Below, piece after piece: positions 19,066 through 36,989 of a DNA stretch of 64,000 bases. The notes under the pieces are model-generated. The model was not told the origin of the DNA and did not search any database. It saw only the letters and a list, made by a program, of their open reading frames with translations. The stretch's first letter is position 1. Each line of letters begins with the position of its first letter. The position numbers and the translations under genes were made by a program. Source of the stretch: Bacteroidales bacterium (lineage in GTDB: Bacteria > Bacteroidota > Bacteroidia > Bacteroidales > UBA12077); the NCBI GenBank assembly GCA_013138975.1, contig WTBR01000035.1, forward strand, positions 43,733-107,732, in the 5' to 3' direction.

Positions 19066-20313
19066 ATGAAAAAAATGAATTTAATTAAGTTAACTGGCAT
19101 GCTTGCAATTGCAATTATGTTTTCGTTATCAAGTTGTAGTGACGATTCTACCGATGACAATGGTAATGACAATGGTACTCCGGATAATACAGTAACAAGT
19201 ACTTCTGAATTATTAGTTGAAAAATTTACTACTGCACCAAATTTAGATGGTGAAATTGACGCTATGTGGGGAGCAGCACAAAAATTAGTTGGAACAACTA
19301 CAGTACCTAGTTTAGGTGCAAGAATGACTTATCTTAATTCTGATGGTGAAGGTACAGAAGAAGATCTTGGTTTATTTGATCCTTATGCAGGAGAAGCTTA
19401 TGATTTTACATTACGTGCAGGATACACAGAAAGTGATATTTATTTCTTAATGGAATGGGCTGATGATAAAGATAGCAAAGACAGACAGTCTTGGTATTTT
19501 GATGCTACAGATAAACTTTGGAAAGGTGAGCACAAATATGCAAATGATTTAAATGATAAATTTTATGAAGATAAATTTGCATTTCTATTCCCAATTGGAG
19601 ATGTAACAGGATTTGATGCCGGATCTTGTTATTCAACTTGCCATGTTGCTACTTCTATTAATAATCCAAAAGATAAGCACACAAGACATTATCTTACTAC
19701 TGAAGGAGAAAAAATTGATATGTGGCACTGGAAACGTGTTAGAGGAACTTACTTAGGTCAAGTGGATGATCAAAAAATGGTTTATGACGATGCTACAGAA
19801 GGATCTTCTGCTAACGGAAGAGCTGGTGATGCAACAGGTAGTGGTGGATATTCAAATAACTCACAAACTCTTGCTATAACAGGAACAACTACAGAAGTTA
19901 GTGTTCCAATGTATATTATTCCTGAAGAAACTGAATATTATTGGATTGATGCTGACCAAATTACTAACGGTACAGCTAAATTAATTACTGCTGTTGATGC
20001 TGAAGGTGTACTTTCTTATGAAGGCGGTGGAACAATTGATCCTGCAGACGGTGGTTTTAACCAAGGAACAGGTACTAAACGTATTCCTAGTGTTACAACA
20101 AAAGCATTTACTGAAGGTAGAGGTGATATTATGATATCAGCTGTTCATAATGGTACTGGTTGGGTTACTGAATTCAGTCGTAAATTAGATACAATGGACG
20201 AAGACGATGTTGTATTTGATGTTACTGCAGAAATTCCATTTGGCTTAGCCATTTTTAACAATGCTGCAATTGCACATGCTATTAAAACAAATCTTGTTTT
20301 AACATTTGAATAA
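19066..20313 (+). CDS. Lipoprotein with EB_dh (ethylbenzene dehydrogenase gamma / DOMON-type heme) domain and CX3CH motif
   Basis: Likely start MKKMNL at 19066; lipobox LSSC then SDD; APNLDG, IYFLMEWAD, YEDKFA, CYSTCH, IDMWHWK, WVTEFSRKL. Confidence 0.85.
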   Translation: MKKMNLIKLTGMLAIAIMFSLSSCSDDSTDDNGNDNGTPDNTVTSTSELLVEKFTTAPNLDGEIDAMWGAAQKLVGTTTVPSLGARMTYLNSDGEGTEEDLGLFDPYAGEAYDFTLRAGYTESDIYFLMEWADDKDSKDRQSWYFDATDKLWKGEHKYANDLNDKFYEDKFAFLFPIGDVTGFDAGSCYSTCHVATSINNPKDKHTRHYLTTEGEKIDMWHWKRVRGTYLGQVDDQKMVYDDATEGSSANGRAGDATGSGGYSNNSQTLAITGTTTEVSVPMYIIPEETEYYWIDADQITNGTAKLITAVDAEGVLSYEGGGTIDPADGGFNQGTGTKRIPSVTTKAFTEGRGDIMISAVHNGTGWVTEFSRKLDTMDEDDVVFDVTAEIPFGLAIFNNAAIAHAIKTNLVLTFE

Positions 20314-20401
20314 TCAATAGAATAAGGATTAAATATCTTATGCACTACATAAATAGTAAATAAAATATAAAATCATAGATAATTAATTAGGTTTTTAATT
20401 T

Positions 20402-20431
20402 AAAGAGGGATGATTTTATCCCTCTTTTTTT
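20402..20431 (+). terminator. Rho-independent terminator
   Basis: aaagagggat-gatttt-atccctcttt followed by T run. Confidence 0.75.
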
Positions 20432-20462
20432 ATATATAAAGTAAAAAAAAACATTCAAAAAG

Positions 20463-21860
20463 ATGATTAGATTATTAAACAAGTTCGTTGAAAAATCATT
20501 CTTCCCTATTGTTTTTAAATATATCACAGGCGCCGTTTTTATTGCCTTACTAATTATTGGTTTTTCTGCAAACTCTTCCGATTCGGCGTTATTAAAATAT
20601 TTACGAAACTTTAATATTGCCAATCTTCTTGTTTGGTCGTATTGGTGGCCTATTATAATTATTAGTGCTGTATTTTTTGGTAGAATTTGGTGCATGGTTT
20701 GTCCTATTGAACTAGTAACATCATTTTTTGCAAAAATTGGATTCAAAAAAGAAAGACCTAAATGGATTAAATCCGGTTGGGCTATTACCATATTTTATAT
20801 CATTATATTATTTATCGGAATAAATGGTTTTGCTATACACCGAAATCCATTTGCAATGTCCATGTATTTGTTATCCATAACAATAGTCGCTGCATTTTCA
20901 GGCCTTATTTTTAAGAAAAATACATTCTGCCGATACATTTGCCCTGTTGGACATTTACTAGGCTTATATTCGCGTTTTTCTTTTCTAGGATGGAGAGTAA
21001 AAGATAAAGAAACATGTAAAACTTGTAAAGACTTATCATGTATTAGCAATGATTATTCATACAATCATAAGGCTAAAAGCTGCGGTGTAGATTTATATCC
21101 TGCCAATATTAAAGACAACTCTAAATGTATTTTATGTGGTGGTTGTAGAAAAACCTGCGGTAAGTATCAAACTGAAGAAAATCCAAATAGACCAAATCCC
21201 GGATTTACAAAAATAAATATTAGCGATAGAGTATTTAATCTTACAAAACTTTCATTGGCTGAATCCTTTTTTGTACTGATTGTTTCTGGTTTTGTGATAT
21301 ATGAGGTCTTTGTAGAATGGAAGATCAGTAAATCATTAATCATGTATCTTCCCAATTTAATTGGACAAGAATTTAATATTAGCAATCCATTTTTATTTGG
21401 TATTCAGAAATGTATTTTACTTTACTTTCTTTTACCTCTTTTAATCTGGTTTATTCCATTTATAGTTAATAAAAGAAAATCAAACTTAGGTTTTAAGGAA
21501 TATATGAAGCATGCTGCTATCATATTTATTCCTATTATGGCTGCGGCACATATAATTAAAGCATTATTAAAAATGACTTCGAGGATTCCATATTTTGAGC
21601 ATACATTCTCCGATGTATCCGGATTACAAAATACTCAACTGTTTTTAAATAATCAAATTGAACTATTAAGTGTACCTTCATTTATTAATAATACTGTTTC
21701 ATTAATAAACTTTGTTGTTATAGTAGCAGGTATCCTTCTTAGCTTTTTAGTTACCAAAAAATCTATTAAAGCTAATAATTTAAATAAAAATCTATACTTG
21801 ATTCCGATTATTTATGGTTCCACATTCTTAATAATGCTTGTTCTGTGGCAACTTTCCTAA
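20463..21860 (+). CDS. Polytopic membrane 4Fe-4S protein (NapH/MauN/CcoG-like)
   Basis: GRIWCMVCP and FCRYICPVG motifs, CKTCKDLSC, CILCGGCRKTC, many TM segments. Confidence 0.88.
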   Translation: MIRLLNKFVEKSFFPIVFKYITGAVFIALLIIGFSANSSDSALLKYLRNFNIANLLVWSYWWPIIIISAVFFGRIWCMVCPIELVTSFFAKIGFKKERPKWIKSGWAITIFYIIILFIGINGFAIHRNPFAMSMYLLSITIVAAFSGLIFKKNTFCRYICPVGHLLGLYSRFSFLGWRVKDKETCKTCKDLSCISNDYSYNHKAKSCGVDLYPANIKDNSKCILCGGCRKTCGKYQTEENPNRPNPGFTKINISDRVFNLTKLSLAESFFVLIVSGFVIYEVFVEWKISKSLIMYLPNLIGQEFNISNPFLFGIQKCILLYFLLPLLIWFIPFIVNKRKSNLGFKEYMKHAAIIFIPIMAAAHIIKALLKMTSRIPYFEHTFSDVSGLQNTQLFLNNQIELLSVPSFINNTVSLINFVVIVAGILLSFLVTKKSIKANNLNKNLYLIPIIYGSTFLIMLVLWQLS

Positions 21861-21944
21861 AAAATTAAATATAAAAAAATACAGATAATTTAGGAATACG
21901 TTTGTAGAATGTATTTATAACTCTTTTTTCTGCATACTAATAAT

Positions 21945-21986
21945 AAAAAAGCTCCAAACACTTTAAATAAAGTATTTGGAGCTTTT
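21945..21986. terminator. Bidirectional terminator between convergent genes
   Basis: aaaaaagctccaaa...tttggagctttt. Confidence 0.8.
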
Positions 21987-22012
21987 GGCTTGTAAATCTT
22001 TTACTAAGTATT

Positions 22013-25000
22013 TTAAAATTTGCTCTTCTTATATTTCCAATATGCAAAAACAGATAAAGACACTATTAAGAAAATACTAACATAAACAAAATTAGGTACA
22101 GGAACAGGATCACCACCTGCATATGAATGTAATCCTGATAGGTAATAATTCACACCAAAATACGTCATTAAAACAGATGCAAATCCGAATAATGCCAATG
22201 CATTAAATGCAAAAAATCCTCTTAGTTCTTTAATCATTCCTGAGTGTGTTACAAATGCATACACAATTATAGTTATTAAAGACCAAGTTTCTTTTGGATC
22301 CCAGCCCCAATATCTTCCCCATGATTCATTAGCCCATATTGCACCTAAAAATGTACCTATGGTTAACAAATACAATCCAACGGTTAATGCTTTATAGTTT
22401 ATAACTGTAAGCTCTTCAATTGTGGATTGAATATTTGATTTATTTCTCTCATTAGACAATGAATAGAGAATTAATACAATCACTGCAATAATTGCGCCTA
22501 TTCCTAAAAAACCATAACTACTAATAATTACAGAAACATGCAGGGTTAACCAGTATGATTGCAGCACAGGAACCAAATTAGTAATTTGTGGATCCATAAA
22601 GCTAAAATGCGCAACCATTAAAGTAAATCCTCCTAAAACTGCTGCTGCTGCTAATACAAATGACGAACGCTTAGCAAAAATAAATCCGGCTAAAATTGTA
22701 ATCCATGAAATAAAAATCATTGATTCGTAGCCATTACTCATAGGTGCGTGCCCTGAAACATACCAACGAATTCCAAGACCTAAAGCATGGAATAAAAATC
22801 CTCCTACCAGAAGTCCTGTAAAGATTTTAATTGTAAGTTTCGATTTTTTATTTTGTGCTATTATATTATAAATCAAAATAAATAAAAGCAGTAAACCTAA
22901 AGTAGCATAAAACGGAAACAGCTTTTCGTAAATCGCTGATTTATAATAAAATACCTCTGCCTTAACTTTTTTCTTACTTGGTAGTTCATATTGGGCAAAA
23001 TTTCTTTGATAGTCATGAATTGACTTTATTACTTCATTGGCCTGTCCGTAGTTGCCTGAACTCGCTCCTACTTGTATTCCTTCGACAAACGAACTAATAA
23101 CATTCTTTAAGTATAATGAGTTTTCACTGTTTGAAACAAGATTATATGCTTCTTTAGGTGCATGCCACTTTAAAGACTGATCGCCAACAGGGAAAATCTT
23201 CATAAATTCACCCAAATAAATCATATAGCAAATATTTAATCTTTCATCGACCTTTATTATTTCTTTATCAAATTTATTTCTTGCACTGGCAGGTTTCGCA
23301 TATGCAGCATCAACAAATTGTTTTATTTTATATGCATTCGTTTGCATGTCAACAATATCGGTAAACGCAGCATAATTGCCACTAATTCCAACTATTTTTT
23401 TCACTTCATCATTAGATACTTTAATAACTGGTACTTGTTGCCAGTTTCCAAAATCCAAATACAAACCTAAAAATACTTGCATAGGTGAATACCCATCGTG
23501 TACAGTTTCTTTCGAAACTTTTCGCAGTATATCATTACTCAAAGTATAAAGCGGCTCTGTTCTTCCACTTTGATTCTGAACTAAAATCTTTCCGAATTCG
23601 TTTGCTAAAGATTTTTCAACTACCAGTTTTTGATTTTGAGAATTAGCAAAAAATGAAAAAGATAAAAACAAAATCAAGAAACTTGCTACTTTAACCGGCT
23701 TCGACTTAAAATAACTCTTTGTTACTTTTCTGAAAAGAGAATTTTTATTCATCATTGATAATATTATAAAGAAGAAAAGTAAAAAATATCCGATGTAGGT
23801 TACAATCATTCCTGCAAAATCTCTACTTACTGTTAATATTGTTCCAAGTTCATCCTTATGATATGATGATTGATAGAATCGCCATCCTTTATATTTTAAT
23901 ATATGATTCATATAAATAGAATAAGGCATATTTATACCCTCGCTTTCATCTATTAAAATTACATCACTTTTATAAGATGATGGACTACTTGAACCTGGAT
24001 ATCGGTCTAAAATAAAATCTTCAAGTTTCAAACTAAATGGCAATTCCATTTCTAAAGGATTATAACTTATTTCAACTAAGTGCTCTCCGTTGTCAAATAT
24101 TGCTTTGTTGTTATTTACTTGTCCACTCCATAAATATAACTCTGTAAATTTATTTCCATAGTTTAATTCAAAGACTAAAGCATTTTTATTTGTTTGTTTT
24201 GTGTTTTTATCTACACTCACTGCTTTTACAGTTCCTTTTGCAGTAATCACATCAGGAATTATTGAAATATCTTTTACTTTATATATTTTCATTCTTTCAA
24301 AAGATACTACCTCTCCTACTTCATGCTCGGTTTCTGTTTCCGACATCATACTTCTTTCGCTTATGGTATATCCTGATTGTATTTTATAAGCATCTCCTTC
24401 TAGAGTAATTCTAATATCAACAGAGTCTTTTTCAACAAAACCAATTAATACACCTCCAAATTTTTTGATTTCTCCTTCTGATAATATTATAGTATAACGC
24501 GTCAAACTGCCTTTAGAAACTAATAATGAAACTATGGGTTTTCCATTTTCAGAATCAACAACTACTTCATCAGCATTTGATAAATTTGTTTTATATTTTA
24601 ACTTGTAAACAACATTATCAATTTTAACTTTCTTGCTATATCTTTCTTTTTTAGTTGACGTGAAGGTCATCTTTTTTGCATTGGAAAAAAGTATTGATCC
24701 ATCTGTATTCTTTATGTCAAATTTCAAATAATTATCACGTGAAGCATATTCATTTTGAGTTGCACCTTCACGAATCTGAATTACACCTTCGAATCCAAAA
24801 TAACGTGTAATTCCAGCTCCTATTATCATTAATACAAAAGCTGAATGAAAGAGCAAAATAGTTAATTTCTTCCTTTTATATAATTTAAATTGAACTATTT
24901 GTCCTATTAAATTAACAATCATCAAAAGCATTAATAATTCAAACCATTTGGTATTGTATACCATTATCTTAGCAGCTATAGCTCCAAAATCATTTTCATA

Positions 25001-25096
25001 AAATGTTGCAAAAGCCATTGACATTGCGAATACAAAAAATAAAACTCCCATAAACCAGGGAGTAAATAGAAAAATACCGTTCTTCTTTTTCATCAT
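22013..25096 (-). CDS. ccsBA: System II cytochrome c synthase, CcsB-CcsA fusion
   Basis: WWD motif WANESWGRYWGWDPKETW, LQSYWLTLH, GLHSYA, ResB-like FYQSSY. Confidence 0.95.
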   Translation of the reverse strand: MMKKKNGIFLFTPWFMGVLFFVFAMSMAFATFYENDFGAIAAKIMVYNTKWFELLMLLMIVNLIGQIVQFKLYKRKKLTILLFHSAFVLMIIGAGITRYFGFEGVIQIREGATQNEYASRDNYLKFDIKNTDGSILFSNAKKMTFTSTKKERYSKKVKIDNVVYKLKYKTNLSNADEVVVDSENGKPIVSLLVSKGSLTRYTIILSEGEIKKFGGVLIGFVEKDSVDIRITLEGDAYKIQSGYTISERSMMSETETEHEVGEVVSFERMKIYKVKDISIIPDVITAKGTVKAVSVDKNTKQTNKNALVFELNYGNKFTELYLWSGQVNNNKAIFDNGEHLVEISYNPLEMELPFSLKLEDFILDRYPGSSSPSSYKSDVILIDESEGINMPYSIYMNHILKYKGWRFYQSSYHKDELGTILTVSRDFAGMIVTYIGYFLLFFFIILSMMNKNSLFRKVTKSYFKSKPVKVASFLILFLSFSFFANSQNQKLVVEKSLANEFGKILVQNQSGRTEPLYTLSNDILRKVSKETVHDGYSPMQVFLGLYLDFGNWQQVPVIKVSNDEVKKIVGISGNYAAFTDIVDMQTNAYKIKQFVDAAYAKPASARNKFDKEIIKVDERLNICYMIYLGEFMKIFPVGDQSLKWHAPKEAYNLVSNSENSLYLKNVISSFVEGIQVGASSGNYGQANEVIKSIHDYQRNFAQYELPSKKKVKAEVFYYKSAIYEKLFPFYATLGLLLLFILIYNIIAQNKKSKLTIKIFTGLLVGGFLFHALGLGIRWYVSGHAPMSNGYESMIFISWITILAGFIFAKRSSFVLAAAAVLGGFTLMVAHFSFMDPQITNLVPVLQSYWLTLHVSVIISSYGFLGIGAIIAVIVLILYSLSNERNKSNIQSTIEELTVINYKALTVGLYLLTIGTFLGAIWANESWGRYWGWDPKETWSLITIIVYAFVTHSGMIKELRGFFAFNALALFGFASVLMTYFGVNYYLSGLHSYAGGDPVPVPNFVYVSIFLIVSLSVFAYWKYKKSKF

Positions 25097-25115
25097 ACTT
25101 TTTTCGTTTAATTAA

Positions 25116-25808
25116 TTATCCCATTTTAGAAACCATAATAAGTTTCTCCTTATTAATAATTTTAATATTAGGGCATTTATCATCTATAATACTATCTTCA
25201 GAAAATTCTTTTAATATTCTAACAACACTTTCTTTTGCCATACCTGATAATTCACCTAATTCCTGTCTTGATAAAATCATCGTGAAATTATCTGAACCAT
25301 GAACTTCATCTGCTAAATATATTAATGTTTCAGCCAATCGACCATGCATTTTTTTCTGTGTATGACTTAAAAATTTATAAAATGTACCAAGAGCCTTTCT
25401 ACTTATATCCTGCAACCAACCTTCTGCAAATTTACTATTTTGACGCATAAGTTCTTTAAGTACATCCATTTTAACAAAACATGCAGACACATCGGTTAAG
25501 GCAGCAACTGAATAATGATGTCTTTCATCAACAAAAGTTCCCGGTCCAGCAATTAATTGCTTCGGTTTAGCTATCCCCACCATCATTCTTTTATTATCGA
25601 AGCCCTCAATATAAATTTTTGCCATTCCATTACTTAAAAATACAGCATTTGAAGTTGGTGATCCTTGCTTAAAAATTATCTCACCGGGCTTGAAATCGGT
25701 CTTAAATTTATTCAAATTTACAATTTCAAGTTCCTTTTCCGTTAAATTTTTAAGGTTCTCCCACTCCAAATCACACTCTTCACATAATTCTTTTTTGGTT
25801 CTATCCAT
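25116..25808 (-). CDS. Crp/Fnr-family transcriptional regulator
   Basis: cNMP-domain motif IIFKQG; HTH SRQELGELSGMAKESVVRIL; N-terminal CEEC. Confidence 0.93.
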   Translation of the reverse strand: MDRTKKELCEECDLEWENLKNLTEKELEIVNLNKFKTDFKPGEIIFKQGSPTSNAVFLSNGMAKIYIEGFDNKRMMVGIAKPKQLIAGPGTFVDERHHYSVAALTDVSACFVKMDVLKELMRQNSKFAEGWLQDISRKALGTFYKFLSHTQKKMHGRLAETLIYLADEVHGSDNFTMILSRQELGELSGMAKESVVRILKEFSEDSIIDDKCPNIKIINKEKLIMVSKMG

Positions 25809-25862
25809 TATATTTTTTTTAGGCGTGCAAAATACATAATAAGATATTCAAATCTTTTATTC

Positions 25863-25884
25863 CGTATTGATATATATCAATACG
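25863..25884. promoter_or_regulatory. Perfect 22-bp palindrome containing a consensus FNR box
   Basis: cgta-TTGAT-atat-ATCAA-tacg between the divergent regulator and hexaheme genes. Confidence 0.8.
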
Positions 25885-26027
25885 AAAATTGATGTTAAAT
25901 GTTCAACCCAATGATTATAATCAGTTGTTATTTGTGTAACAATCAATTGCCAAAAATAGCAAATAAAGACCTTTTATTCTTATTTTGTCTTTATAAATCA
26001 TAATTCACTTAAATTTAAAAAATAGCT

Positions 26028-27134
26028 ATGAAAAAAACAATTAAATTATTAAGTATTCTGTTCCTTTTTGGTGCAATATTTATGTCTTGCGAAGGACCAG
26101 CAGGAATTGACGGTGTTGATGGTGTTGATGGTATTATCGGTGAAGCTGGCGGTGATGGAACCGCTATTTGTATGACTTGCCATAATGCAGGAACTGTTTA
26201 TGCTGCAAAAGTAGATCAATTCAATGAAGGTGCTCACGCACTTGGAACATATTATTCTCGTGGTGAAGATTGTTCAGGATGTCACAGTACTGACGGATTT
26301 TTAGCACGTATGGATTTTACTTCTGCTGACGAAATCTTTGACTTAGACTTAACTGATCAATCAGCAATTAGCTGTAGAGCTTGCCACATTGTTCACACTA
26401 CTTATGATGAAACTGATTGGAATTTAACTTTTGCAGATCAAGTAACAGAAACAATTTTAGGTATTGATAATGCAGATGTTGCTTCGGGTGAATTTGAAGA
26501 TATGGGTGATGTAAATATGTGTGTACAGTGTCACCAATCACGTAATCCTATAGAAGTACCTAGTGCTACTTCTACAACTGATGTAAATATATCTCATTAT
26601 TGGGGACCTCATCACGGACCTCAGGGAAGTATATTAAATTCTCAAGGTGGAGTTGAAGTAGGTACCGGATACCCAACAACAGCATTCAATCCAACAACTT
26701 CATTCGCTCATGATTGTATTAATTGCCATATGCCGAATGGTAATCACAATTTAGCTTTAGATGAATCAACTTGTACTTCTTGCCATAGTGACATTACAGA
26801 TAAACTTGCTGCAATTCAAGATGAGGTTGAAGGTAAATTAACCGACTTAGGAAGAACATTAGCTGGATTAGGAGGTTTAGATCCTGATACTGAAACTGAA
26901 ACTGTATGGAACGAAACTTTAGGAGAACATGTAGAAACTACTGACACTGTAGGATACCATGCAATGGGCTCAGGTTATGGTGGATATGGAGACAATCCTG
27001 TTGCTGCAGACTTAGGAAGATGTGTATTTAATTATTTAATTATTGCTGAAGATCAGAGTATGGGAATTCATAACCCTGATTATATTATTACATTATTAGA
27101 TAACACAATTACATTAGCTGAAACATTAAAATAA
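26028..27134 (+). CDS. Hexaheme c-type cytochrome lipoprotein with collagen-like linker
   Basis: Lipobox FMSC; GXX repeats; CMTCH, CSGCH, CRACH, CVQCH, CINCH, CTSCH; GPHHGPQ and SMGIHNPDY. Confidence 0.9.
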   Translation: MKKTIKLLSILFLFGAIFMSCEGPAGIDGVDGVDGIIGEAGGDGTAICMTCHNAGTVYAAKVDQFNEGAHALGTYYSRGEDCSGCHSTDGFLARMDFTSADEIFDLDLTDQSAISCRACHIVHTTYDETDWNLTFADQVTETILGIDNADVASGEFEDMGDVNMCVQCHQSRNPIEVPSATSTTDVNISHYWGPHHGPQGSILNSQGGVEVGTGYPTTAFNPTTSFAHDCINCHMPNGNHNLALDESTCTSCHSDITDKLAAIQDEVEGKLTDLGRTLAGLGGLDPDTETETVWNETLGEHVETTDTVGYHAMGSGYGGYGDNPVAADLGRCVFNYLIIAEDQSMGIHNPDYIITLLDNTITLAETLK

Positions 27135-27153
27135 AAACATATTAAATTTTATT

Positions 27154-27253: not shown

Positions 27254-27267
27254 TTGATTAAAATCAT
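27254..27267. promoter_or_regulatory. FNR-type box (9/10 match)
   Basis: TTGAT-taaa-ATCAT upstream of the lipoprotein/DUF5777 pair. Confidence 0.55.
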
Positions 27268-27402
27268 AATTAAAACAGTAACACGTCATATAAAAAAGTG
27301 ATATTAAATAACTACATTGTTTTAACATAGAAAAACATTAATATTGTTCAAGATGTCGTTCAAAAAAAAATTAACTTCATAAAAAAATAAAGGATATATA
27401 AG

Positions 27403-27765
27403 ATGAAAAAAAGTTTATTATTTATTTTAGGATTACTTTTATTCATATTTACATCATGTGAATATAAAATTATTGAACCTATAATTGTTGAGTTACCTGA
27501 CGAACCAGTTATTTTCTCTGAGCAAGTAGAACCTTTCCTTTTCGATAAATGTGGTTCATCTTGTCATTCTTCACAAAGTCCTATTTTAACGATAGGTAAT
27601 GCCTATGACAATTTAATTGAAGGCGGTTACATTAATACAGACAATCCTCCAGCAAGTGAAGTATATATTAAAGTTAATTCTGGTCATCATAGCAGCAACC
27701 CATTAAGTCCTGAAGAAATGGCTTATCTTCTTAAATGGATAGAAGAAGGTGCAATTGAAAACTAA
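27403..27765 (+). CDS. Small monoheme cytochrome c lipoprotein (atypical CX3CH)
   Basis: Lipobox FTSC; FSEQVEP..KCGSSCH; C-terminal LLKWIEEGA. Confidence 0.8.
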   Translation: MKKSLLFILGLLLFIFTSCEYKIIEPIIVELPDEPVIFSEQVEPFLFDKCGSSCHSSQSPILTIGNAYDNLIEGGYINTDNPPASEVYIKVNSGHHSSNPLSPEEMAYLLKWIEEGAIEN

Positions 27766-27800
27766 TTAAATAAAGGTATTATAAATAAATATTAAAAATC

Positions 27801-28667
27801 ATGAAGAAATTCGCTTATACAATTATCATCACAATGTTATTTGCTTTAACCAGTAGTTTAACATTTGCACAGGAAGAAACTGTAAAAAAAGTAGAAAAAC
27901 CGGTTTACGAACCTTTTCAAGCATCTACTTTAATTGAAAGTCAAACTGTTATAGGTTCTAACGCAAAACAATTAGAACTAATTATACATCACCGATTTGG
28001 TGGTACGGATAATGGTTTCACCGATTTATTTGGAATTTATGCTGCTTCAAATATTCGAATGGGATTACAGTACGGAATAACCGACAAATTAACAATTGGA
28101 ATTGGAACAGAGAAAGCGAACAAATTCAGTGACTTAAATGCTAAATATGTAATTATACAGCAAACCAGATCGGGAAGCATACCAGTATCAGTATCTGCAC
28201 ATGCTAATATTACACTGGATAGCAGAGAAGAGCAATTTTTTGGTGATAATTATGAGTATGTAGATCGTTTCTCATATTTTGCGCAAGTAATTGCTTCACG
28301 AAAATTTACAGATGCCTTATCAATTCAAATTGCACCGGGTTATGCGCATTTCAACTCTGTTGACAGTGTTTTTCAAAACAATAAAGGAGCAGTAATGATT
28401 GGTGGTAGATATAAATTTACAGAAACTATGTCTGCTATTGCTGAATATCATCTACCTATAAATATCAATCCTGCGCGAGATTATCATAGTGATATTGAAT
28501 CGGGATTAGCTTTTGGATTAGAAATAAGTACACCTACACATGCATTCCAGGTTTTTGCTACAAATTACCAAGGAATTATGGCTCAAAAGAATTATGTTAT
28601 GAATACTAATAAATTTGATAGTGAAGGGATATTAATAGGTTTTAATATTACTGTTAGATTTAATTAA
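27801..28667 (+). CDS. Outer-membrane beta-barrel protein, DUF5777-like
   Basis: Signal peptide TFA|Q; IHHRFG, LFGIY, YGITD, HAFQVFATN, terminal IGFNITVRF strand. Confidence 0.8.
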   Translation: MKKFAYTIIITMLFALTSSLTFAQEETVKKVEKPVYEPFQASTLIESQTVIGSNAKQLELIIHHRFGGTDNGFTDLFGIYAASNIRMGLQYGITDKLTIGIGTEKANKFSDLNAKYVIIQQTRSGSIPVSVSAHANITLDSREEQFFGDNYEYVDRFSYFAQVIASRKFTDALSIQIAPGYAHFNSVDSVFQNNKGAVMIGGRYKFTETMSAIAEYHLPININPARDYHSDIESGLAFGLEISTPTHAFQVFATNYQGIMAQKNYVMNTNKFDSEGILIGFNITVRFN

Positions 28668-28689
28668 AAGCACTCAGATTTAAAAATAT

Positions 28690-28724
28690 AAAAGCATCGG
28701 GATTTATACCTCGATGCTTTTTTT
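28690..28724 (+). terminator. Rho-independent terminator
   Basis: aaaagcatcg-g...c-tcgatgcttttttt. Confidence 0.8.
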
Positions 28725-29052
28725 ATGGTAAATTTTATTGAGTTAACGAACAATTATTTCAATAATATTTTATTAACGTGAATTCGACATAAGAATATGC
28801 TTTAATAATTTCAAAATCAATTCTACCTAAGTTATCTTAGTTCTAATTTACAACATTAATATTTGTTTGATTAACTCTGTCATTCTCGCCTGCCAAAGCC
28901 AAAGCACATTATTACAATCACTAATCGTTATTAGCTAGTATTCATTTCAATTTTCCCTGTTGAATATATTGGACTTTAACAGTACAAAAAGTAATTCTTA
29001 GTAACTACGCAGATATATTATAATATTAATATATAGCTATTTGAAAAATTAA

Positions 29053-29156
29053 TTTCACGCAAAGCACGCTAAGAAAAAAATATGCAAAGACCGCATTTAA
29101 CACAAAATAAGCTTTTTGCGATCTTTGCGAAAAACTTTGCGACTTTTGCGAGAAAT
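29053..29156. repeat. CGCAAAG/CTTTGCG REP-like cluster
   Basis: cgcaaag-like units on the left and four tttgcga units on the right form an imperfect inverted repeat. Confidence 0.65.
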
Positions 29157-29380
29157 ATAAAGTACTAATATTTTATCTGTTAGTTTTAAATAGTGTGCCT
29201 GAATTAGTTACAATTCTTTTCTATTCTCCAAAGTTTTTACTCAACTTCTAACTATATCTTGTTTTGAAATAAACTCTTTCAACAATTTACTTTATGTGAC
29301 TATTGTTAATTAAAGAAAAATCCTTTATAAATTGATGCAATTTAATTTAATAAATTCACATTGATTATTGTATATACTAA

Positions 29381-29418
29381 AAGGACTTACTAAAACAATT
29401 ATGTTTTAATAAGTCCTT
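29381..29418 (-). terminator. Hairpin terminator after the 19-heme gene
   Basis: aaggacttactaaaaca-atta-tgttttaataagtcctt. Confidence 0.75.
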
Positions 29419-29444
29419 CATTCAATATATCAAATTAAAAGATA

Positions 29445-32222
29445 TTACCCTGCTAACAATGAATATATAATTAGTATTACCAAGGTTATTCCAATTCCCA
29501 AGAAAAAGAATCCAGCTGCTTTTACCATATTCAATTTCCATTTTGTAATTTCTTTTTCAACTATAACTTTTTCTAAACGGCCTGAATCTACGAGCTCTTT
29601 ATATTCTTTTGGTCTATCTTTTTTAAACTCATCTAAAGGAGTAAGTCCTGTAAAAATAACTGTATCCATCGGGAATGCTTCAGGACGGAAGTGAGTATGA
29701 AAAAAGTGAACTGTAAAAATAAAACCTGTTGCCAATAAAGCTTCATCACTATGTATAATCTGCACTACATTAATAACCCAACCAGGTAATGCCCTTGAGA
29801 AAAATTCAGGAAACCATAGCATTAATCCAGAAAATCCAATAACGGCTACTCCCCAGAATACAGCCATGTAGTCAAATTTCTCCCAATAAGTCCATCTTCC
29901 GTAATTTGGTTTTGTCCCTTTTCCTATAAACCATTTTAAAGTTGCCCCTAAATCTCTCCAGTCCTGCATATTAAACATTAACGAATTACTACCAAAAACA
30001 AATTGTCTGAATGATTTTTTTCGTTCGATCATTTGTTTAATCAAGGAATACAAGTGAAATCCAAAATAACCAAAAGTTATTAAAGCACCAAACCTGTGAA
30101 TCATACTGGCGTTATAAACACCTCCAAGCGCATTGGTAATAAATTGAGCCCACTCCATATGAGCAAATTTTATTATCATTCCGGTTAATGCCAGAAGTAT
30201 AAAACTAATTATTACAAAAATATGTGTGATTCTTTGACTATATGAAAACCGTCTTACATATTTTACTTTTCCTTCAGGTCTAACATGCTTATTCTTTCTC
30301 AACTCAATTATTGACCTTGGAATCCATAAAAGGGTATGAAATCCGTAAAATCCAAATACTCCTACTAATAAAAATGTCATTGCCCAAAAAGCATAATATA
30401 ATGCCGGATATTTATTTTTATCATTATGTGTTGCATGTGTTAAATATCCTGTAAATCTCTCGTTTGCATCAGGATGACATTTTTGACATGTAGCAACAAT
30501 ATTATGAATCCCAACTTCCGAATCAGGATTATTTACACTTAAGATATTATGAGCACCATGGCAATCGGAACATCTTGCTGTTTTTAAGTAACCTAACAGG
30601 TATGCTTTTCCGTGATATGTCTCTAAATATGTTTCTGATAAATGCTCATGACAAGAACCACACTGATGTGTTATCTCTATCATAAACTCATCCTGATCTA
30701 TTCTTGAAATCATATGAGCGGAATGACAGTTGCCACAAGTTGGTAATTCTTTATCGCTTTCATTTTCAAACGAATGTATACTTCCTAAATATTCATCAGC
30801 TATTGGTTTATGACATTTTGCACAGGTTGAAACAAGATGTTGTGGATTAACTGATGAATTTTCATCAGATTCTTTTAACATATTATGCGTTGTATGACAA
30901 TCGGTACAAACAGCCGTTATGGTTAATCCCTTTTCCTCCAAGCTTTTACCATGTACACTTGATGAATAATCAAAATAAGCATCAACTTCTTTTAATCCTT
31001 TCCCCTCAATTGCTTTATTATCTTTTGAATGACATTTACCGCATAAATTAGGAATAGCAGTTCTATATGTTGGCGCTGTTTCATCGTATCTTGATTTTAC
31101 TTTATGGCTACCATGACAATCGGTACAATAAGGTGCATTTTCATCTTTTCTAAAATATGCCTGTCCATGTCCACTGGTAAAATATTTATTTGATACTTCT
31201 GCGTGGCAATTATCGCAATCAACTTCTTTTGCTGTTTCGCAAGGTCGTTCCAAAAAAGGTGAAACATCCGTATGACATTTTACACATGTAATTTTTTTAT
31301 GCTCATAATCATCTAAATCAGCTCTTTCAACTTTTAATGAAATTTTTTCTCCATCTACTACTTTATGAACACCATCCTTGCTATGACATTTTAAACAAGC
31401 ATTATCTGACATAGTAGCTTTAATATTCTTTACATTAATCTTATGAGGTGGATGACAATCGGTACAAGCTGGTATTGCGCCTGGAGCCTCTTCCCACAAT
31501 TCACCTTTGATAACCTTAACATGAACATCTTCAATTCTTGCATGACATTTCATACAAGTTTTTGCAACATTGTTTGCAGAAATACTTGAATTTGGGTTAT
31601 TATGTGGCAGTACTAAATGATTTCCATGGCAATTATTACAGGTTGCTGTAACTATTAATCCACTATTAAATAATCCTTGTCCATGAATACTCTGGCTATA
31701 ATTATCTAATATATTATGCTCGGTAATATTATATGCACGCGATACAGGAGCTCCCTCTTTATGACATTTTCCGCACAAAAACGGAATATTCATTTTATAA
31801 GTTAAAGATTTAGGATCCGTGGTAGGTAAAATTGTATGCTCTCCATGGCATTCTGTGCAAGTAGGTGCATATAGTTCATTTAATTTTAGCGCTTGACCGT
31901 GTATTCCTTTGTAGAAATTATCATCTGCCTTTGTATGGCAATCACCACAATTAACATTATTTAAATTTTCATTATGAGGAAAATCATCAACAGCAGCATC
32001 TTTATGACATGAAGCACATGAAACAGAATTATGTACAGATTTTATGATAATTCGTCCATCAACATACATTGACCTTCCATCGATTTCAGATACCAATTCA
32101 GTATCTTCATGGCACATAAAACAGTCTTCATCAGATTGGCTATATGTTAATGATATTTGCAAAAAAAATATAATTAAAAATAAATAATTTCTTTTTCCTG
32201 CAACAAGCTTTTCGAAAATCAT
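29445..32222 (-). CDS. CbcL-like fusion: 19-heme c-type domain plus FdnI/HydC-type cytochrome b
   Basis: Signal peptide TYS|Q; 19 CxxCH counted; RFSYSQRITH, LALTG, YGRWTYWEKFDY, IIHSDEALLA, VHFF. Confidence 0.92.
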   Translation of the reverse strand: MIFEKLVAGKRNYLFLIIFFLQISLTYSQSDEDCFMCHEDTELVSEIDGRSMYVDGRIIIKSVHNSVSCASCHKDAAVDDFPHNENLNNVNCGDCHTKADDNFYKGIHGQALKLNELYAPTCTECHGEHTILPTTDPKSLTYKMNIPFLCGKCHKEGAPVSRAYNITEHNILDNYSQSIHGQGLFNSGLIVTATCNNCHGNHLVLPHNNPNSSISANNVAKTCMKCHARIEDVHVKVIKGELWEEAPGAIPACTDCHPPHKINVKNIKATMSDNACLKCHSKDGVHKVVDGEKISLKVERADLDDYEHKKITCVKCHTDVSPFLERPCETAKEVDCDNCHAEVSNKYFTSGHGQAYFRKDENAPYCTDCHGSHKVKSRYDETAPTYRTAIPNLCGKCHSKDNKAIEGKGLKEVDAYFDYSSSVHGKSLEEKGLTITAVCTDCHTTHNMLKESDENSSVNPQHLVSTCAKCHKPIADEYLGSIHSFENESDKELPTCGNCHSAHMISRIDQDEFMIEITHQCGSCHEHLSETYLETYHGKAYLLGYLKTARCSDCHGAHNILSVNNPDSEVGIHNIVATCQKCHPDANERFTGYLTHATHNDKNKYPALYYAFWAMTFLLVGVFGFYGFHTLLWIPRSIIELRKNKHVRPEGKVKYVRRFSYSQRITHIFVIISFILLALTGMIIKFAHMEWAQFITNALGGVYNASMIHRFGALITFGYFGFHLYSLIKQMIERKKSFRQFVFGSNSLMFNMQDWRDLGATLKWFIGKGTKPNYGRWTYWEKFDYMAVFWGVAVIGFSGLMLWFPEFFSRALPGWVINVVQIIHSDEALLATGFIFTVHFFHTHFRPEAFPMDTVIFTGLTPLDEFKKDRPKEYKELVDSGRLEKVIVEKEITKWKLNMVKAAGFFFLGIGITLVILIIYSLLAG

Positions 32223-32385
32223 AAGTTTAGTTATTTATTATAATTATTTACGTAAATATATCTCTATTTCGCTGAAACGTCAAATTATTTATAACATTTT
32301 GTGTATATTTACATATCAACATATTAAACTAATTAGATGAGGTTTTAAATTATTAATTATCAATTATTAAATATCAATTAGCGAA

Positions 32386-32399
32386 TTGATATACATCAT
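32386..32399. promoter_or_regulatory. FNR-type box (9/10 match) in divergent promoter region
   Basis: TTGAT-atac-ATCAT between the cbcL-like and cbcA-like genes. Confidence 0.6.
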
Positions 32400-32605
32400 A
32401 AATATTGCGATATAAATCACCAAGGAATTGTTTTTATAGATCATTTAAAAACAAAACTTTGCCAATTAATAATAAATGATTTAAATTCGCCAAGTATAAA
32501 TTATGTTAATTTATAAAGACTTTTGTCATGATTTGTGGAGATTTTTGTCATATATTTAAAACGCATTACTAAAAATTATTTTAATCCTTATAACCTATTC
32601 TAAAA

Positions 32606-33532
32606 ATGAAAATTGCCTTACCTATTAAGTTTGTAATTATTTGTTCGTTTCTTTTTTTAATTCATCAAATTGTTCAAGCACAGGACAATGAAGAAAAAAT
32701 TAAAATGCCCGAATCAAATAATGTATGTCTCAATTGCCATGGGCATAAATATTTCTCATTCTATAATGAAAATACAGAAATAAATGAACGCAAATTAATG
32801 AATCCTTACTTTGTTATTGATTCAATTAGTTATCTTCAGGGAGCACATCAAGGACATTCCTGCATAGATTGCCATTCTGAGGATTATGGAGTTTATCCTC
32901 ATATAGCTGAATTAAAAATTGAACCAAAACTTACTTGTGTGGATTGCCATGATTTTGAGGCAATTGCAACTGAAGTAAAAAAGAGCGTTCATATGGAAGC
33001 GTTTGGTGAGTTTTTTCAATGTGAATTATGTCATGATCCTCATTCAAATAAATTAGTGAAATCTGATATGGCAGAGTTAGTTAGATATAATAATAACAGA
33101 TGTCTAAATTGTCATAATGATGTGGATAAATATCAAGTTTTTACTTCGCATGAAAATCCACAATTACTTGTTACGCACGATTGGTTGCCAAATCAGGCCT
33201 TACACTTTGCACATGTTCGCTGTATTGAATGTCATACAGCTGTAACAGACACTGCTGATGCTGTACACCATATTGTTCCAAAAGAACAAGCAGTAAAGAA
33301 TTGCAACGAATGTCATTCAGAAAATTCATTGTTACGCGACAAGCTTTATAAACATCAATTAAAAGAAGATCGTTCGGAATTTAACTTTTATAAGTCATTT
33401 ATTATTAATGACGCATATATAATAGGCGCAAATAAAAATTATTATGTTAATTTAATTAGCTTATTAATATTTGGTCTTACATTTTTTGGAATATTAACAC
33501 ATACAATTTTTAGAATTATTAAACGTAAATAA
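32606..33532 (+). CDS. Heptaheme cytochrome c with C-terminal membrane anchor (CbcA-like)
   Basis: Signal peptide VQA|Q; 7 CxxCH; HDWLPNQALH; C-terminal TM with His (GILTH). Confidence 0.9.
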   Translation: MKIALPIKFVIICSFLFLIHQIVQAQDNEEKIKMPESNNVCLNCHGHKYFSFYNENTEINERKLMNPYFVIDSISYLQGAHQGHSCIDCHSEDYGVYPHIAELKIEPKLTCVDCHDFEAIATEVKKSVHMEAFGEFFQCELCHDPHSNKLVKSDMAELVRYNNNRCLNCHNDVDKYQVFTSHENPQLLVTHDWLPNQALHFAHVRCIECHTAVTDTADAVHHIVPKEQAVKNCNECHSENSLLRDKLYKHQLKEDRSEFNFYKSFIINDAYIIGANKNYYVNLISLLIFGLTFFGILTHTIFRIIKRK

Positions 33533-33533
33533 A

Positions 33534-34151
33534 ATGAGCAACACTAAATTATATCTTTATCCAGTTTGGCTAAGAATATGGCATGCAATAAATGCCTTAT
33601 GTATAATACTTTTAGGTATTACAGGTATTAGTATGCAATATACAAATATAGAGTCACCATTGATTAATTTTAATTCTGCTGTATCTATCCATAATCTTGT
33701 TGGTGTAATTATAATAGCAAGTTATTTATTCTTTTTCATTGCTGGTATTATATCAGGTAATGTTAAACACTACAGGCTTCTTTTTAAAGGTTTATTAAAC
33801 CGATTATTTAAACAAGGAGAATATTATCTTTTTGGATATCTAAAAGGAGAGCCTAAACCATTTCATATTACAAAAGAGGAAAAGTTTAATCCTTTACAGA
33901 AAGTTTCTTACGTTGCTGCAATGTATGTTTTAGTTCCTGCGGTTATAATTACTGGAGTTGCATTATTATTTCCTGAAATGATTATAGAAAAGTTTTATAC
34001 TATGAGTGGAATTAGATTAACTACATTCTTCCATTCACTTGCCGGATTTTTCATACTAATTTTTCTAATTATTCATTTATACGTAATTACGATTGGGAAA
34101 CATCCATTAAAAAACTTTAAAAGTATTGTTAACGGTTATCATGAATCTTAA
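33534..34151 (+). CDS. Four-TM di-heme cytochrome b (CbcB/PhsC-like)
   Basis: RIWHAINA, SIHNLVG, KFNPLQK, FFHSL, IIHLY; starts 1 bp after the heptaheme gene. Confidence 0.92.
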   Translation: MSNTKLYLYPVWLRIWHAINALCIILLGITGISMQYTNIESPLINFNSAVSIHNLVGVIIIASYLFFFIAGIISGNVKHYRLLFKGLLNRLFKQGEYYLFGYLKGEPKPFHITKEEKFNPLQKVSYVAAMYVLVPAVIITGVALLFPEMIIEKFYTMSGIRLTTFFHSLAGFFILIFLIIHLYVITIGKHPLKNFKSIVNGYHES

Positions 34152-34298
34152 TTTACTTGTTCAATAAAGTGGATAGAATAATGAACTTAATAAGTCTTTG
34201 ATTTTGCTAAATAATTAAAAAAAGCTATTTTTGAACATAATAAAAGTAAAATTAAACCATATAATATATTATTAATTTACAAATTAAAAATTTTAGCT

Positions 34299-34814
34299 AT
34301 GAATGTAAAAAAATTATTATTAATTGTTTGTTCTGTATTTCTTGTAGTTAGCATGTCGAAAGCACAAGATTATGAGTACATTGGCGCTGCAAAATGTAAA
34401 ATGTGTCATAATAAAGAAGTTAAAGGTAAACAATACGACATTTGGAAAACTAAAGATCATGCAAAAGCAATGGAGTCTTTGGCAACTGACGAAGCAAAAA
34501 AATATTCAGATGATCCTCAAAATGATCCTAAATGTTTAAAGTGTCATTCAACTTATCATGTAGCTGCTAGTGCTGATTTAAACCTTACTATTAAAGCTGA
34601 TGAAGGTGTTTCATGTGAGTCTTGCCACGGACCAGGAAGTAAGTATAAATCAATGTCTATTATGAAAGATCACCAAGGCAGTTTAGATAATGGTATGATT
34701 GTACCTACAGAAGCTGTTTGTAAAACTTGCCATAACGAAGAGAGTCCTACTTATAAAGAATTTAATTATGCTGAAGCATTAAAGATGATTTCTCATCCAA
34801 ATCCTGCTAAATAA
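34299..34814 (+). CDS. Periplasmic tetraheme cytochrome (c554-like family)
   Basis: Signal peptide SKA|Q; YIGAAKCKMCH, CLKCH, GVSCESCHGPGS, CKTCH. Confidence 0.9.
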   Translation: MNVKKLLLIVCSVFLVVSMSKAQDYEYIGAAKCKMCHNKEVKGKQYDIWKTKDHAKAMESLATDEAKKYSDDPQNDPKCLKCHSTYHVAASADLNLTIKADEGVSCESCHGPGSKYKSMSIMKDHQGSLDNGMIVPTEAVCKTCHNEESPTYKEFNYAEALKMISHPNPAK

Positions 34815-34834
34815 TAAAATTCTTAATTAAATAT

Positions 34835-34868
34835 AAAAACTCCTTAATTTATAATTAAGGAGTTTTTT
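34835..34868. terminator. Bidirectional terminator
   Basis: aaaaactccttaatt-tat-aattaaggagtttttt. Confidence 0.85.
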
Positions 34869-35058
34869 ATTTTTCTATTTCTAGTACTTACACAATTATC
34901 ATTCCTAAAAAGCTTACACTCCAAATATTGTTTGTCGACAAAAATGGAATGACTAATTCAAAAAAAACTGTAATAAGGATAATAGTTTTTTATAGATTAT
35001 TTAAAGCTACACAAAGCCTTATTAACAAAAATAGCCCCACTTTCCGAGCAGTTTTTCA

Positions 35059-35439
35059 TTACTTCAACATTACAAGTAAACTTCCTGTAATATAGGCTAC
35101 AACCCACCATAAATAAGCAAATAAAGTATATCTATGTAACTTCTTTGGCACTTCAGTTCCTAAACCGTTTTTAGTATAAAACTTCCAAATTAATACAACA
35201 TCAATCAACATTGCAGCCAAGGCTGAATATCCCAAAAATCCATGAATTGTGAACGGAGAATTTGTTGATCCAATTATCATACAAATTGTAGCAGTAATAT
35301 CAAGTATGACACCAACAGTTATGAATAATAAAACAGCTTTTACAAGTTTATGTTTACGCTGCTCGGTAATTACACCAATTGAATAAGAAATTAAAGCTAG
35401 TGTCACCACTGTAGCTCCAATAATTGAAATAGTTTTCAT
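35059..35439 (-). CDS. Four-TM membrane protein, HsmA/TIGR03987-like (putative heme binding)
   Basis: TLALISYSIGV..E, LDITAT, HGFLG, LHRYT..W pattern. Confidence 0.65.
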   Translation of the reverse strand: MKTISIIGATVVTLALISYSIGVITEQRKHKLVKAVLLFITVGVILDITATICMIIGSTNSPFTIHGFLGYSALAAMLIDVVLIWKFYTKNGLGTEVPKKLHRYTLFAYLWWVVAYITGSLLVMLK

Positions 35440-36978: not shown

Positions 36979-36989
36979 TGCATTAAATA

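Follow-up and report, generated by a model that had tools for sequence, protein, structure and literature searches.

A 13-gene island at positions 19066-35439 of a 64,000-nucleotide stretch of a marine-sediment Bacteroidales genome (the whole stretch hereafter being called the window) encodes multiheme cytochromes of the inner membrane and periplasm, heme lipoproteins, and a beta-barrel of the DUF5777 family predicted in the outer membrane. The host genome comprises 6.8 Mb in 221 contigs, with approximately 30% G+C, and the nearest relatives of the island proteins are found in metagenome-assembled genomes (MAGs) titled Bacteroidales or Marinilabiliales bacterium. Our analyses indicate that this is a real, co-conserved respiratory island and a variant of the porin-cytochrome type of system. 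We propose that it may form an anaerobically induced respiratory branch running from menaquinol to the outer membrane and probably beyond it, a reading of the sequence that we hold with about even confidence. An extracellular role of the island is plausible, and we see it as roughly balanced between right and wrong.

Heme c attachment motifs occur in the island at a density far above chance. Thirty-six CxxCH motifs are distributed over four proteins, i.e., a CbcL-like fusion protein (29445-32222, minus strand; 19 motifs), a CbcA-like heptaheme cytochrome (32606-33532, plus strand; 7 motifs), a tetraheme cytochrome (34299-34814, plus strand; 4 motifs), and a hexaheme lipoprotein (26028-27134, plus strand; 6 motifs). 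This amounts to 36 motifs in 4,648 residues for the island genes, compared with 1 in 13,579 residues for all other called genes of the window. Shuffling the residues of the four cytochromes yielded mean values of 0.02 to 0.08 CxxCH, with a maximum of 2. Two further lipoproteins each contain a single CX3CH motif, an EB_dh/DOMON-like protein (19066-20313, plus strand) and a small monoheme protein of 120 residues (27403-27765, plus strand). The first-pass annotation of this DNA, made from the sequence alone, had counted 38 heme c motifs (19+7+4+6+1+1). Our recount gave the same total, with both CX3CH motifs conserved, and family matches and localisation signals bore out its list of island parts. 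That annotation did not contain a collagen-like stalk, FNR-type boxes, the association of DUF5777 with YceI-like proteins and a small cytochrome c throughout the phylum, or two larger clusters of porin-like proteins and giant cytochromes, all of which are described below.

The inner-membrane modules had been likened to those of Geobacter, and the architecture of the proteins supports this. In the CbcL-like protein (925 aa, with a signal sequence), the 19-heme c domain is fused to a six-helix cytochrome b of the HydC/FdnI type, matched at the C terminus by PF01292 (Ni_hydr_CYTB; 7e-9) and, below the cut-off of that model, by TIGR01583 (9.5e-10). All 19 CxxCH motifs are invariant in 15 orthologs. 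Six hydrophobic segments are located between residues 607 and 923, and the invariant His residues 629, 667, 709, 723, 824, 839, and 844 are in or next to helices 1, 2, 3, and 5. Both traits of the CbcL/MtoC/MtrH family are thus present, namely a periplasmic multiheme c domain at the N terminus and, at the C terminus, a cytochrome b of the HydC/FdnI type with roughly six helices and conserved His residues. Zhong and Shi described the members of this family as proteins of 416 to 1034 aa with 3 to 23 hemes and mostly six helices, and counted five homologs in Bacteroidetes (PMC6295460). The description of CbcL by Joshi et al. gives a diheme cytochrome b with six helices, a multiheme c domain, and a pattern of His residues (10.1101/2021.04.15.440034). 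As in CbcL of G. sulfurreducens, conserved His residues are found in helices 1 to 3 and 5 of the diheme cytochrome b part; unlike CbcL, which has 9 hemes, the island protein has 19, and a different outer-membrane set is encoded alongside it.

The second module consists of the CbcA-like heptaheme cytochrome (308 aa) and a CbcB-like four-helix cytochrome b (33534-34151, plus strand; 205 aa). In addition to its CxxCH motifs, the former has seven invariant distal His and an invariant His299 in a C-terminal membrane helix at residues 283 to 301 (49 orthologs). The latter has four hydrophobic segments and four invariant His (51 orthologs) and matches PF01292 (2.6e-24); its match to NF011582, "thiosulfate reductase cytochrome B" (2.3e-51), has a score of 174.8 bits, under the cut-off of 204. 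A seven-heme cytochrome with a His-bearing C-terminal helix and a four-helix cytochrome b of the thiosulfate-reductase type are likewise the components of CbcBA in G. sulfurreducens. Joshi et al. described the C-terminal helix of CbcA and the traits of CbcB, and already named cbcBA-homologous clusters in Marinilabiliales, Prolixibacter, and Labilibaculum (10.1101/2021.04.15.440034). Unlike cbcBA, the island has the A gene before the B gene and is embedded with a barrel and lipoproteins; no sigma-54/BccR-type regulator was found in the island, where a Crp/Fnr-family protein is the sole regulator. Membership in the CbcL and CbcBA types is assigned from predicted architecture.

On the periplasmic side, the tetraheme cytochrome belongs to the c554 family (PF13435, Cytochrome_C554; 1.9e-17) and has a signal peptide without a lipobox. 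The hexaheme lipoprotein has an unusual N terminus, in which the lipidated Cys21 is directly followed by eight uninterrupted Gly-X-Y triplets (residues 23-46) and then by the first of the six heme motifs. This collagen-like run comprises 3 to 12 triplets, with a mode of 8, in 52 orthologs, compared with at most 3 in 517 other open reading frames (ORFs) of the same loci. None of the papers listed in a literature search mentioned a collagen-like stalk together with a multiheme cytochrome, and the combination is of structural interest. The six heme motifs, five further His, and Arg172 are invariant in the protein, and Gln170 is near-invariant; both Arg172 and Gln170 are next to heme 4. As only five invariant distal His are available for six hemes, one heme may have an open coordination site. 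Matches to known proteins are weak, namely to an MtrC/MtrF_II-IV domain (4.9e-5, below the cut-off) and, over the last two heme motifs, to OcwA of Thermincola potens (PDB 6qvm; E 0.012). The hexaheme protein may share with OcwA one incompletely coordinated heme; unlike OcwA, it has six hemes rather than nine and is a lipoprotein with a Gly-X-Y stalk, and the similarity is too weak for family membership.

The family of the hexaheme protein itself is large, with 1238 cluster representatives at E<=1e-30, including giant proteins with two to seven tandem copies. Its Atlas clusters come from Bacteroidota, Chloroflexota, Gemmatimonadota, and Myxococcota, and Pfam Collagen repeats occur with relatives of the hexaheme unit in the Chloroflexota and Myxococcota clusters. 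Metagenome proteins of 1327 to 1946 aa (P0193, P0207, P0220, P0287, and P0297) contain the unit as four to seven tandem copies; as judged from their sequences, these would be giant multiheme cytochromes built from the hexaheme module.

Downstream of the hexaheme gene, the monoheme lipoprotein and the barrel are encoded. The monoheme lipoprotein is PSCyt1-like, with a lipobox followed by a conserved C-E-Y. Its CX3CH aligns with CxxCH in 52 relatives and with CX4CH in 25, and longer relatives carry PSCyt1 (PF07635) and PF13442. No distal His or Met is universally conserved in the window-type small cytochromes, His95 being present in 24 of 42. The spacing of the heme motif was found to co-vary between the small cytochrome and the hexaheme protein in related loci, with CX4CH in both at 17, in neither at 25, and discordant at 4, which may reflect lineage or a shared maturation constraint.

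The barrel gene (27801-28667, plus strand) codes for a 288-aa precursor with a signal-peptidase-I type signal, giving a mature protein of approximately 265 aa. It matches PF19089 (DUF5777) with 240.6 bits (2e-71), compared with a gathering cut-off of 23.1. The C terminus, ...GFNITVRF(N), has the aromatic end of outer-membrane proteins, and the alternation of hydrophobic residues suggests about 12 strands with short periplasmic turns. The Atlas model has a pTM of 0.83. Mutual-information pairs mostly represent subfamily signal; a few give weak support to hairpins and to closure of the barrel between strands 1 and 12. Invariant residues of the barrel include His64, Arg65, Arg156, Glu241, and His247. 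A heme held between the invariant His64 and His247 was considered and dropped as unsupported, these residues being at opposite ends in the inferred topology and His183 lacking conservation across the broader group of window-type barrels.

Together, these proteins suggest the following path. The Crp/Fnr-type regulator would control the island and bring about its anaerobic induction. Two bc-cytochromes of the inner membrane, i.e., the CbcL-like fusion of a 19-heme domain with cytochrome b and the CbcA/CbcB-like pair, would oxidize menaquinol, and the periplasmic heme domains of both would reduce the soluble c554-type tetraheme protein and the hexaheme lipoprotein, the latter probably tethered to the outer membrane by its lipid anchor and collagen-like stalk. 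The monoheme lipoprotein and the 12-strand barrel would form the outer-membrane station, from which electrons would reach an acceptor located at this membrane or beyond it. Such acceptors could be metal oxides, humic matter, or redox proteins of the cell surface, the EB_dh-like protein being an example. We infer these steps from domain architecture and topology signals, and the same holds for the direction of flow, for the small cytochrome touching the barrel, and for the passage of electrons through the outer membrane. That there is a partner on the outside is hinted at by an export signal in the EB_dh-like protein, by a copper protein with a type IX secretion system (T9SS) sorting domain encoded elsewhere in the genome, by the Collagen-bearing relatives of the hexaheme protein, and by its tandem-copy relatives. 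Fermentative Bacteroidetes of the Marinilabiliales type have been described to reduce metal oxides (Mn and Fe), with the genes involved given as unknown (PMC5760507).

Co-conservation of the island genes was analyzed by using window-type barrels alone as bait. A species-level collection of genomes yielded at least 443 related stretches, of which we retained the 80 best loci, with neighbors counted within the fetched flanks (at most 10 kb, many of them cut by contig ends). The small cytochrome accompanied the barrel in 76 of these 80 loci, the Crp/Fnr regulator in 59, the heptaheme cytochrome in 54, the hexaheme lipoprotein in 52, the cytochrome b in 51, and a class I monoheme cytochrome c (PF00034, PF13442) in 49. 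Less frequent neighbors were NrfC-like (20), CbcL-like (18), tetraheme (14), ImcH-like (13), NrfD-like (13), CcsBA (12), HsmA-like (6), EB_dh (3), and NapH-like (1) genes. At least one quinol-dehydrogenase-type module, whether CbcBA-like, CbcL-like, NrfCD-like, or ImcH-like, was present in 67 loci; 4 of the 13 loci devoid of such a module end within 121 bp after the barrel. The co-conservation supposed in the first-pass annotation therefore holds for a core formed by the barrel, the small cytochrome, the regulator, and the heptaheme and hexaheme proteins, and does not extend to the EB_dh-like and NapH-like genes, which are accessory parts.

Within the genus, 7 of 25 genomes (host included) contain the window-type set, four of them with CbcL and CbcBA and three with an NrfCD-like set instead, showing that quinol-dehydrogenase modules are swapped at one genomic site. 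A genome of the same genus without DUF5777 (G003) keeps the flanks, with genes for the zinc-ribbon protein, a CcsBA-like protein, HydABC, and the S46 peptidase, and has no stretch matching positions 25116-48853 of the window. This indicates an accessory island, the quinol modules of which can be exchanged. A compact form of the cassette is present in two cultured strains, Carboxylicivirga mesophila JCM 18290 and C. sediminis JR1 (loci L074 and L075), where the order is regulator, hexaheme, small cytochrome, barrel, monoheme c, CbcA-like, and CbcB-like.

The island has its own regulator, as had been proposed, encoded at 25116-25808 on the minus strand. This Crp/Fnr-family protein consists of cNMP_binding and HTH_Crp_2 domains and has an N-terminal CxxC (C9 and C12) in addition to C110 and C212. 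Of 60 orthologs, 56 have a CxxC among their first 45 residues, and 42 have three N-terminal Cys. Matches to the Crp, FnrL, and Fnr models were weak and below the cut-offs, that of Fnr far below. The consensus of FNR boxes is TTGAT-N4-ATCAA, and we searched the window for this sequence, set beforehand, allowing at most one mismatch. An exact box (18894-18907) and two boxes with one mismatch (18491-18504 and 18636-18649) are located upstream of the EB_dh-like gene, and a second exact box (25867-25880) is between the regulator and hexaheme genes. Boxes with one mismatch were also found upstream of the small cytochrome gene (27254-27267) and between the divergent CbcL-like and heptaheme genes (32386-32399). 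The 3,914 bp of island intergenic DNA thus contain six boxes, compared with a mean of 0.67 in shuffled sequences, none of 2000 shuffles reaching six. FNR-type boxes were not above chance in the window as a whole (14 versus 11.2), and their concentration in the island promoters alone stands out. Across the 80 loci, 31 of 60 regulator genes (52%), 24 of 52 hexaheme genes (46%), and 14 of 75 small-cytochrome genes were preceded by a box at a distance of no more than 250 bp, compared with 31 of 1035 other genes (3%). Terminator-like hairpins are found 3' of the EB_dh, NapH-like, hexaheme, barrel, and tetraheme genes.

A number of observations weigh against an electron path across the outer membrane. 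The first-pass annotation had assigned three heme lipoproteins to the outer membrane, and lipoboxes are indeed present in all three, i.e., the EB_dh-like, hexaheme, and monoheme proteins. The signal for surface export of lipoproteins in Bacteroidota is a C-X-K-(D/E)2 or S-D-D-type sequence directly after the lipidated Cys (PMC5080379). Only the EB_dh-like protein has such a signal, with the N terminus CSDDSTDD, as do three of its four relatives; none was found in 44 hexaheme and 66 monoheme orthologs with a lipobox. The two core c-type lipoproteins may therefore face the periplasm or use another route. By this criterion, the EB_dh-like heme protein (Pfam EB_dh, 6.5e-31), an accessory part, is the only one predicted at the surface, and it is the protein that was found in just 3 of the 80 loci. 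Its CX3CH motif is kept in all four aligned relatives, and its gene is directly upstream of those for the small cytochrome and the barrel in loci L113 and L121, an arrangement that speaks for an outside partner. As to the barrel, it had been called a conduit, and of this the barrel stands. The conduit role is weakened, and unproven, as the mature protein of about 265 aa with an inferred 12 or so strands is small and has no detectable relation to the MtrB or OmbB porins; how such a barrel could carry electrons is unexplained, and a profile search returned no PDB sequence relative at E<=1. Also, DUF5777 is found beside YceI-like and small cytochrome c genes in genera without multiheme cytochromes, so that its general role need not be metal respiration. 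In addition, 8 of the 80 loci are the same contigs as in the within-genus sample, and the counts are not independent samples. Last, two larger clusters in the host genome, with porin-like proteins and cytochromes of 20 to 30 hemes, could be the real exit, with the island only feeding them.

These two clusters (C68:34547-43754 and C185:10482-15436) encode porin-like proteins of 651 and 540 aa with an aromatic C-terminal end. Beside them are giant cytochromes with 9, 20, and 30 CxxCH motifs in one cluster and 21 and 20 in the other, and a second CcsBA-like gene and NrfA/NrfH-like genes are near the C68 cluster. A similar cluster of porin-like protein and giant cytochromes is reported for a Lentimicrobium MAG (PMC13013709). 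In total, 20 ORFs of the genome have at least three CxxCH motifs, with 204 motifs together. At C31:41648-43174, the genome also encodes an ImcH-like cytochrome of the NapC/NirT type, which has three helices and six CxxCH motifs.

The lack of an export signal in both core c-type lipoproteins would also fit a branch confined to the periplasm, with the hexaheme protein, suspended from the inner leaflet of the outer membrane, as terminal reductase or oxidase of a small soluble substrate such as an organic oxidant, an oxyanion, or a chelated metal, the barrel as the channel admitting this substrate, and the small cytochrome as a relay. With five distal His for six hemes, and with Arg172 and Gln170 next to heme 4, the hexaheme protein could be a catalytic terminal reductase, and its weak match to the Thermincola surface reductase OcwA points in the same direction. 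The first-pass annotation had stated that the window has no terminal reductase. We found neither a molybdopterin enzyme nor another named terminal reductase in 50 window ORFs scanned against Pfam (three short ORFs and overlapping shadow ORFs being left out), but the hexaheme lipoprotein makes that statement unsafe. In the small barrel, charged or polar residues that are invariant are numerous and are placed along the inferred strands from their periplasmic to their outer end, as in solute channels; its Atlas feature neighbors are of the transporter type (Phenol_MetA_deg, score 0.94), which we take as a lead only. However, the neighboring genes suggest no substrate, the collagen-like stalk and tandem relatives are more typical of extended or surface cytochromes, and three or four alternative quinol dehydrogenases would be unusual for one soluble substrate. 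The T9SS-sorted copper protein beside a paralogous cytochrome-barrel pair and the EB_dh-like partner with its export signal both point outward. We consider a periplasm-only branch, the main rival to our proposal, unlikely on balance, while giving it real weight.

The copper protein is encoded in a second DUF5777 cassette of the host (C175:1205-7032; locus L001), where its gene is followed by those for a monoheme lipoprotein of 125 residues, a barrel, a YceI-like protein, and a large sensor. Its ligand pattern, His...Cys-x2-His-x4-Met, is that of a type-1 copper protein, and its T9SS sorting domain predicts a secreted or surface redox protein. The order copper protein, monoheme protein, DUF5777, YceI-like protein, and sensor is found in at least five loci of the genus (L001 and L007-L010).

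DUF5777 is widespread, being present in 167 of 401 sampled Bacteroidota genomes and in 90 of 180 genera, and no paper naming it was found in our literature search. YceI-like proteins are isoprenoid binders. In 29 DUF5777 loci of other genera, we found YceI-like genes of two reference types (24 and 6), the small cytochrome (17), other small ORFs with CxxCH (2 and 8), and a tRNA_anti-like membrane protein (12). Both the distribution and these neighbors would suit a general envelope module for redox or lipid functions, made of the small cytochrome, DUF5777, and elsewhere a YceI-like protein, which was recruited beside respiratory cytochromes without acting as a conduit. Its task might be the handling of isoprenoid quinones or metals at the outer membrane, or protection from oxidants. 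Two observations argue otherwise. In the tree of barrels, the window type forms a clustered subfamily whose neighbors are multiheme cytochromes rather than YceI-like proteins (81 of 137 rows, in a sampling biased to the window type), with 12 changes of context label compared with 49 in shuffles. Furthermore, the tight order of hexaheme, small cytochrome, barrel, and quinol module under one regulator favors a single pathway. We regard a general module of this kind as improbable.

A bolder form of the proposal that the island reaches beyond the outer membrane would place the same pair at its center. The monoheme lipoprotein and the 12-strand DUF5777 barrel would be a minimal trans-outer-membrane electron gate used across Bacteroidota, wiring interchangeable quinol-oxidizing cytochromes to varied outside partners. 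The gate would act like Cyc2 or MtrAB while being unrelated to both, and its partners would be collagen-stalked, probably trimeric hexaheme proteins, DOMON/EB_dh-type heme lipoproteins, and T9SS-secreted blue copper proteins. We put this forward tentatively, as a possible but rather doubtful generalization.

The pairing of a monoheme cytochrome with a small barrel is also the logic of Cyc2-type iron oxidizers, and it raises the question of whether electrons might flow inward. In that case, the small cytochrome and barrel would take up electrons from a cathode or a partner cell, or from extracellular Fe(II) or reduced humics, and the periplasmic cytochromes would pass them on, either into the quinone pool or to reductases of oxygen or nitrate. 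In 49 of the 80 loci there is a class I monoheme cytochrome c, a type usually of high potential, and the genome also carries an alternative complex III and a cytochrome oxidase. The CbcL family includes MtoC of iron oxidizers, and sequence is silent on direction (PMC6295460). Nevertheless, FNR-type control and a fermentative, hydrogenase-rich setting fit electron disposal better, and no link to carbon fixation was seen in the window. In Cyc2, cytochrome and barrel are one polypeptide, and in the island each has its own gene. A fused form did not appear among the best hits: of 2081 barrel relatives, the top 120 were all 282 to 320 aa long with PF19089 as their only domain, barrel relatives of greater length gave no score, and none of 71 long relatives of the small cytochrome contained PF19089. 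Compared with Cyc2 as generally described rather than by sequence, the island shares the use of one heme c and a small barrel as a minimal outer-membrane redox unit, and differs by its lipid-anchored cytochrome, another barrel family, and a setting that suggests electron disposal. We give inward flow little credence, and outward flow from menaquinol remains the reading that we propose.

That reading places the island near the MtrCAB system of Shewanella and the OmbB-OmaB-OmcB and Ext systems of Geobacter, with which it shares a barrel, a multiheme lipoprotein, periplasmic cytochromes, and quinol oxidases in one cluster, as well as an accessory, modular character. The large porin of 20 to 26 strands that sheathes a multiheme cytochrome in the Mtr and porin-cytochrome complex (Pcc) systems has no counterpart in the island, whose barrel is a 288-aa precursor with about 12 inferred strands and no sequence match in the PDB. 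Moreover, the constant partner of the island barrel is a monoheme lipoprotein, and the multiheme lipoprotein of the island bears a collagen-like stalk and lacks an export signal. The inner-membrane modules are of known kinds that have been partly noted in print. The outer-membrane set, the collagen-like stalk, the regulation, and the breadth of the system appear undescribed, as judged from a search that did not include subscription journals and supplements; no Carboxylicivirga paper on electron transfer was among those it listed, and a deep-sea chitin paper and a peat preprint are silent on the system.

The remaining genes of the island encode a cytochrome c synthase and two membrane proteins. 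The fused ResB-CcsA protein (CcsBA; 22013-25096, minus strand) is a system II synthase with both the ResB-like and the CcsA/CcsB domains (PF05140, 4.1e-22; PF01578, 1.2e-44) and a TIGR03144 score of 198.6 bits, above the cut-off of 187.6. It had been counted as the island's own; the fused synthase is present, but its linkage to the barrel is confined to the genus (the 12 loci mentioned above), and it is kept in G003, which has no island. The protein annotated as HsmA-like (35059-35439, minus strand) has four helices and a full-length match to TIGR03987 (5.4e-16), though its 58.7 bits are below the curated cut-off of 78.2, and it matches no Pfam family. The NapH-like polyferredoxin membrane protein (20463-21860, plus strand), an accessory part, has nine hydrophobic segments, a Fer4_5 match (1.1e-8), and a TIGR02163 match (1.7e-10) far under the cut-off.

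Heme synthesis genes and two hydrogenases had been noted nearby, and both were found. The genes for ferrochelatase (hemH), protoporphyrinogen oxidase, and a hemN-like protein are at 41502-45528, and two HydABC-type [FeFe] hydrogenases are encoded at 9075-13253 and 49090-52561. Directly after the heme synthesis genes are those for an MFS transporter and a TonB-dependent receptor (45515-48853), which may serve the supply of iron or heme for the cytochromes. A sensory-type [FeFe] hydrogenase (15406-16764, 452 aa) is located among genes for DRTGG, histidine-kinase-like ATPase, and PHP-domain proteins at 13776-17536; this region, adjoining a HydABC-type hydrogenase, looks like a hydrogen-sensing regulatory set. 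Between the cytochrome and heme synthesis genes, positions 35839-40613 encode an acyl-CoA dehydrogenase, an acyl-carrier-like protein, a HAD-like protein, and a 3-hydroxyacyl-CoA dehydrogenase, all absent in G003. Further downstream, the region 58164-63948 contains the alpha and beta genes of an electron-transfer flavoprotein, an oxidoreductase with FeS and CCG domains, and a long acyl-CoA dehydrogenase, and likely feeds electrons from acyl-CoA oxidation into the quinone pool. The window also encodes a UbiA-family prenyltransferase (55718-56668) and, at 5032-7851, two tandem paralogs of 456 and 467 aa with TPR repeats and a Fib_succ_major domain.

In anoxic sediments, Marinilabiliales and Bacteroidales rank among the main degraders of polymers, and the outer-membrane set described here may reveal the way in which they bring respiratory electrons to their outer membrane or through it. 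With at least 443 related stretches, the cassette is a concrete, widely conserved candidate for metal-oxide reduction, and its presence in two cultured Carboxylicivirga strains makes it testable at the bench. Should the small barrel and monoheme lipoprotein indeed conduct electrons through the outer membrane, they would constitute a third architecture beside Mtr/Pcc and Cyc2, provide the first function for DUF5777, and widen the set of markers for predicting extracellular electron transfer from genomes. A gate of this kind would explain the reduction of metals and humic matter by "fermentative" sediment Bacteroidota.

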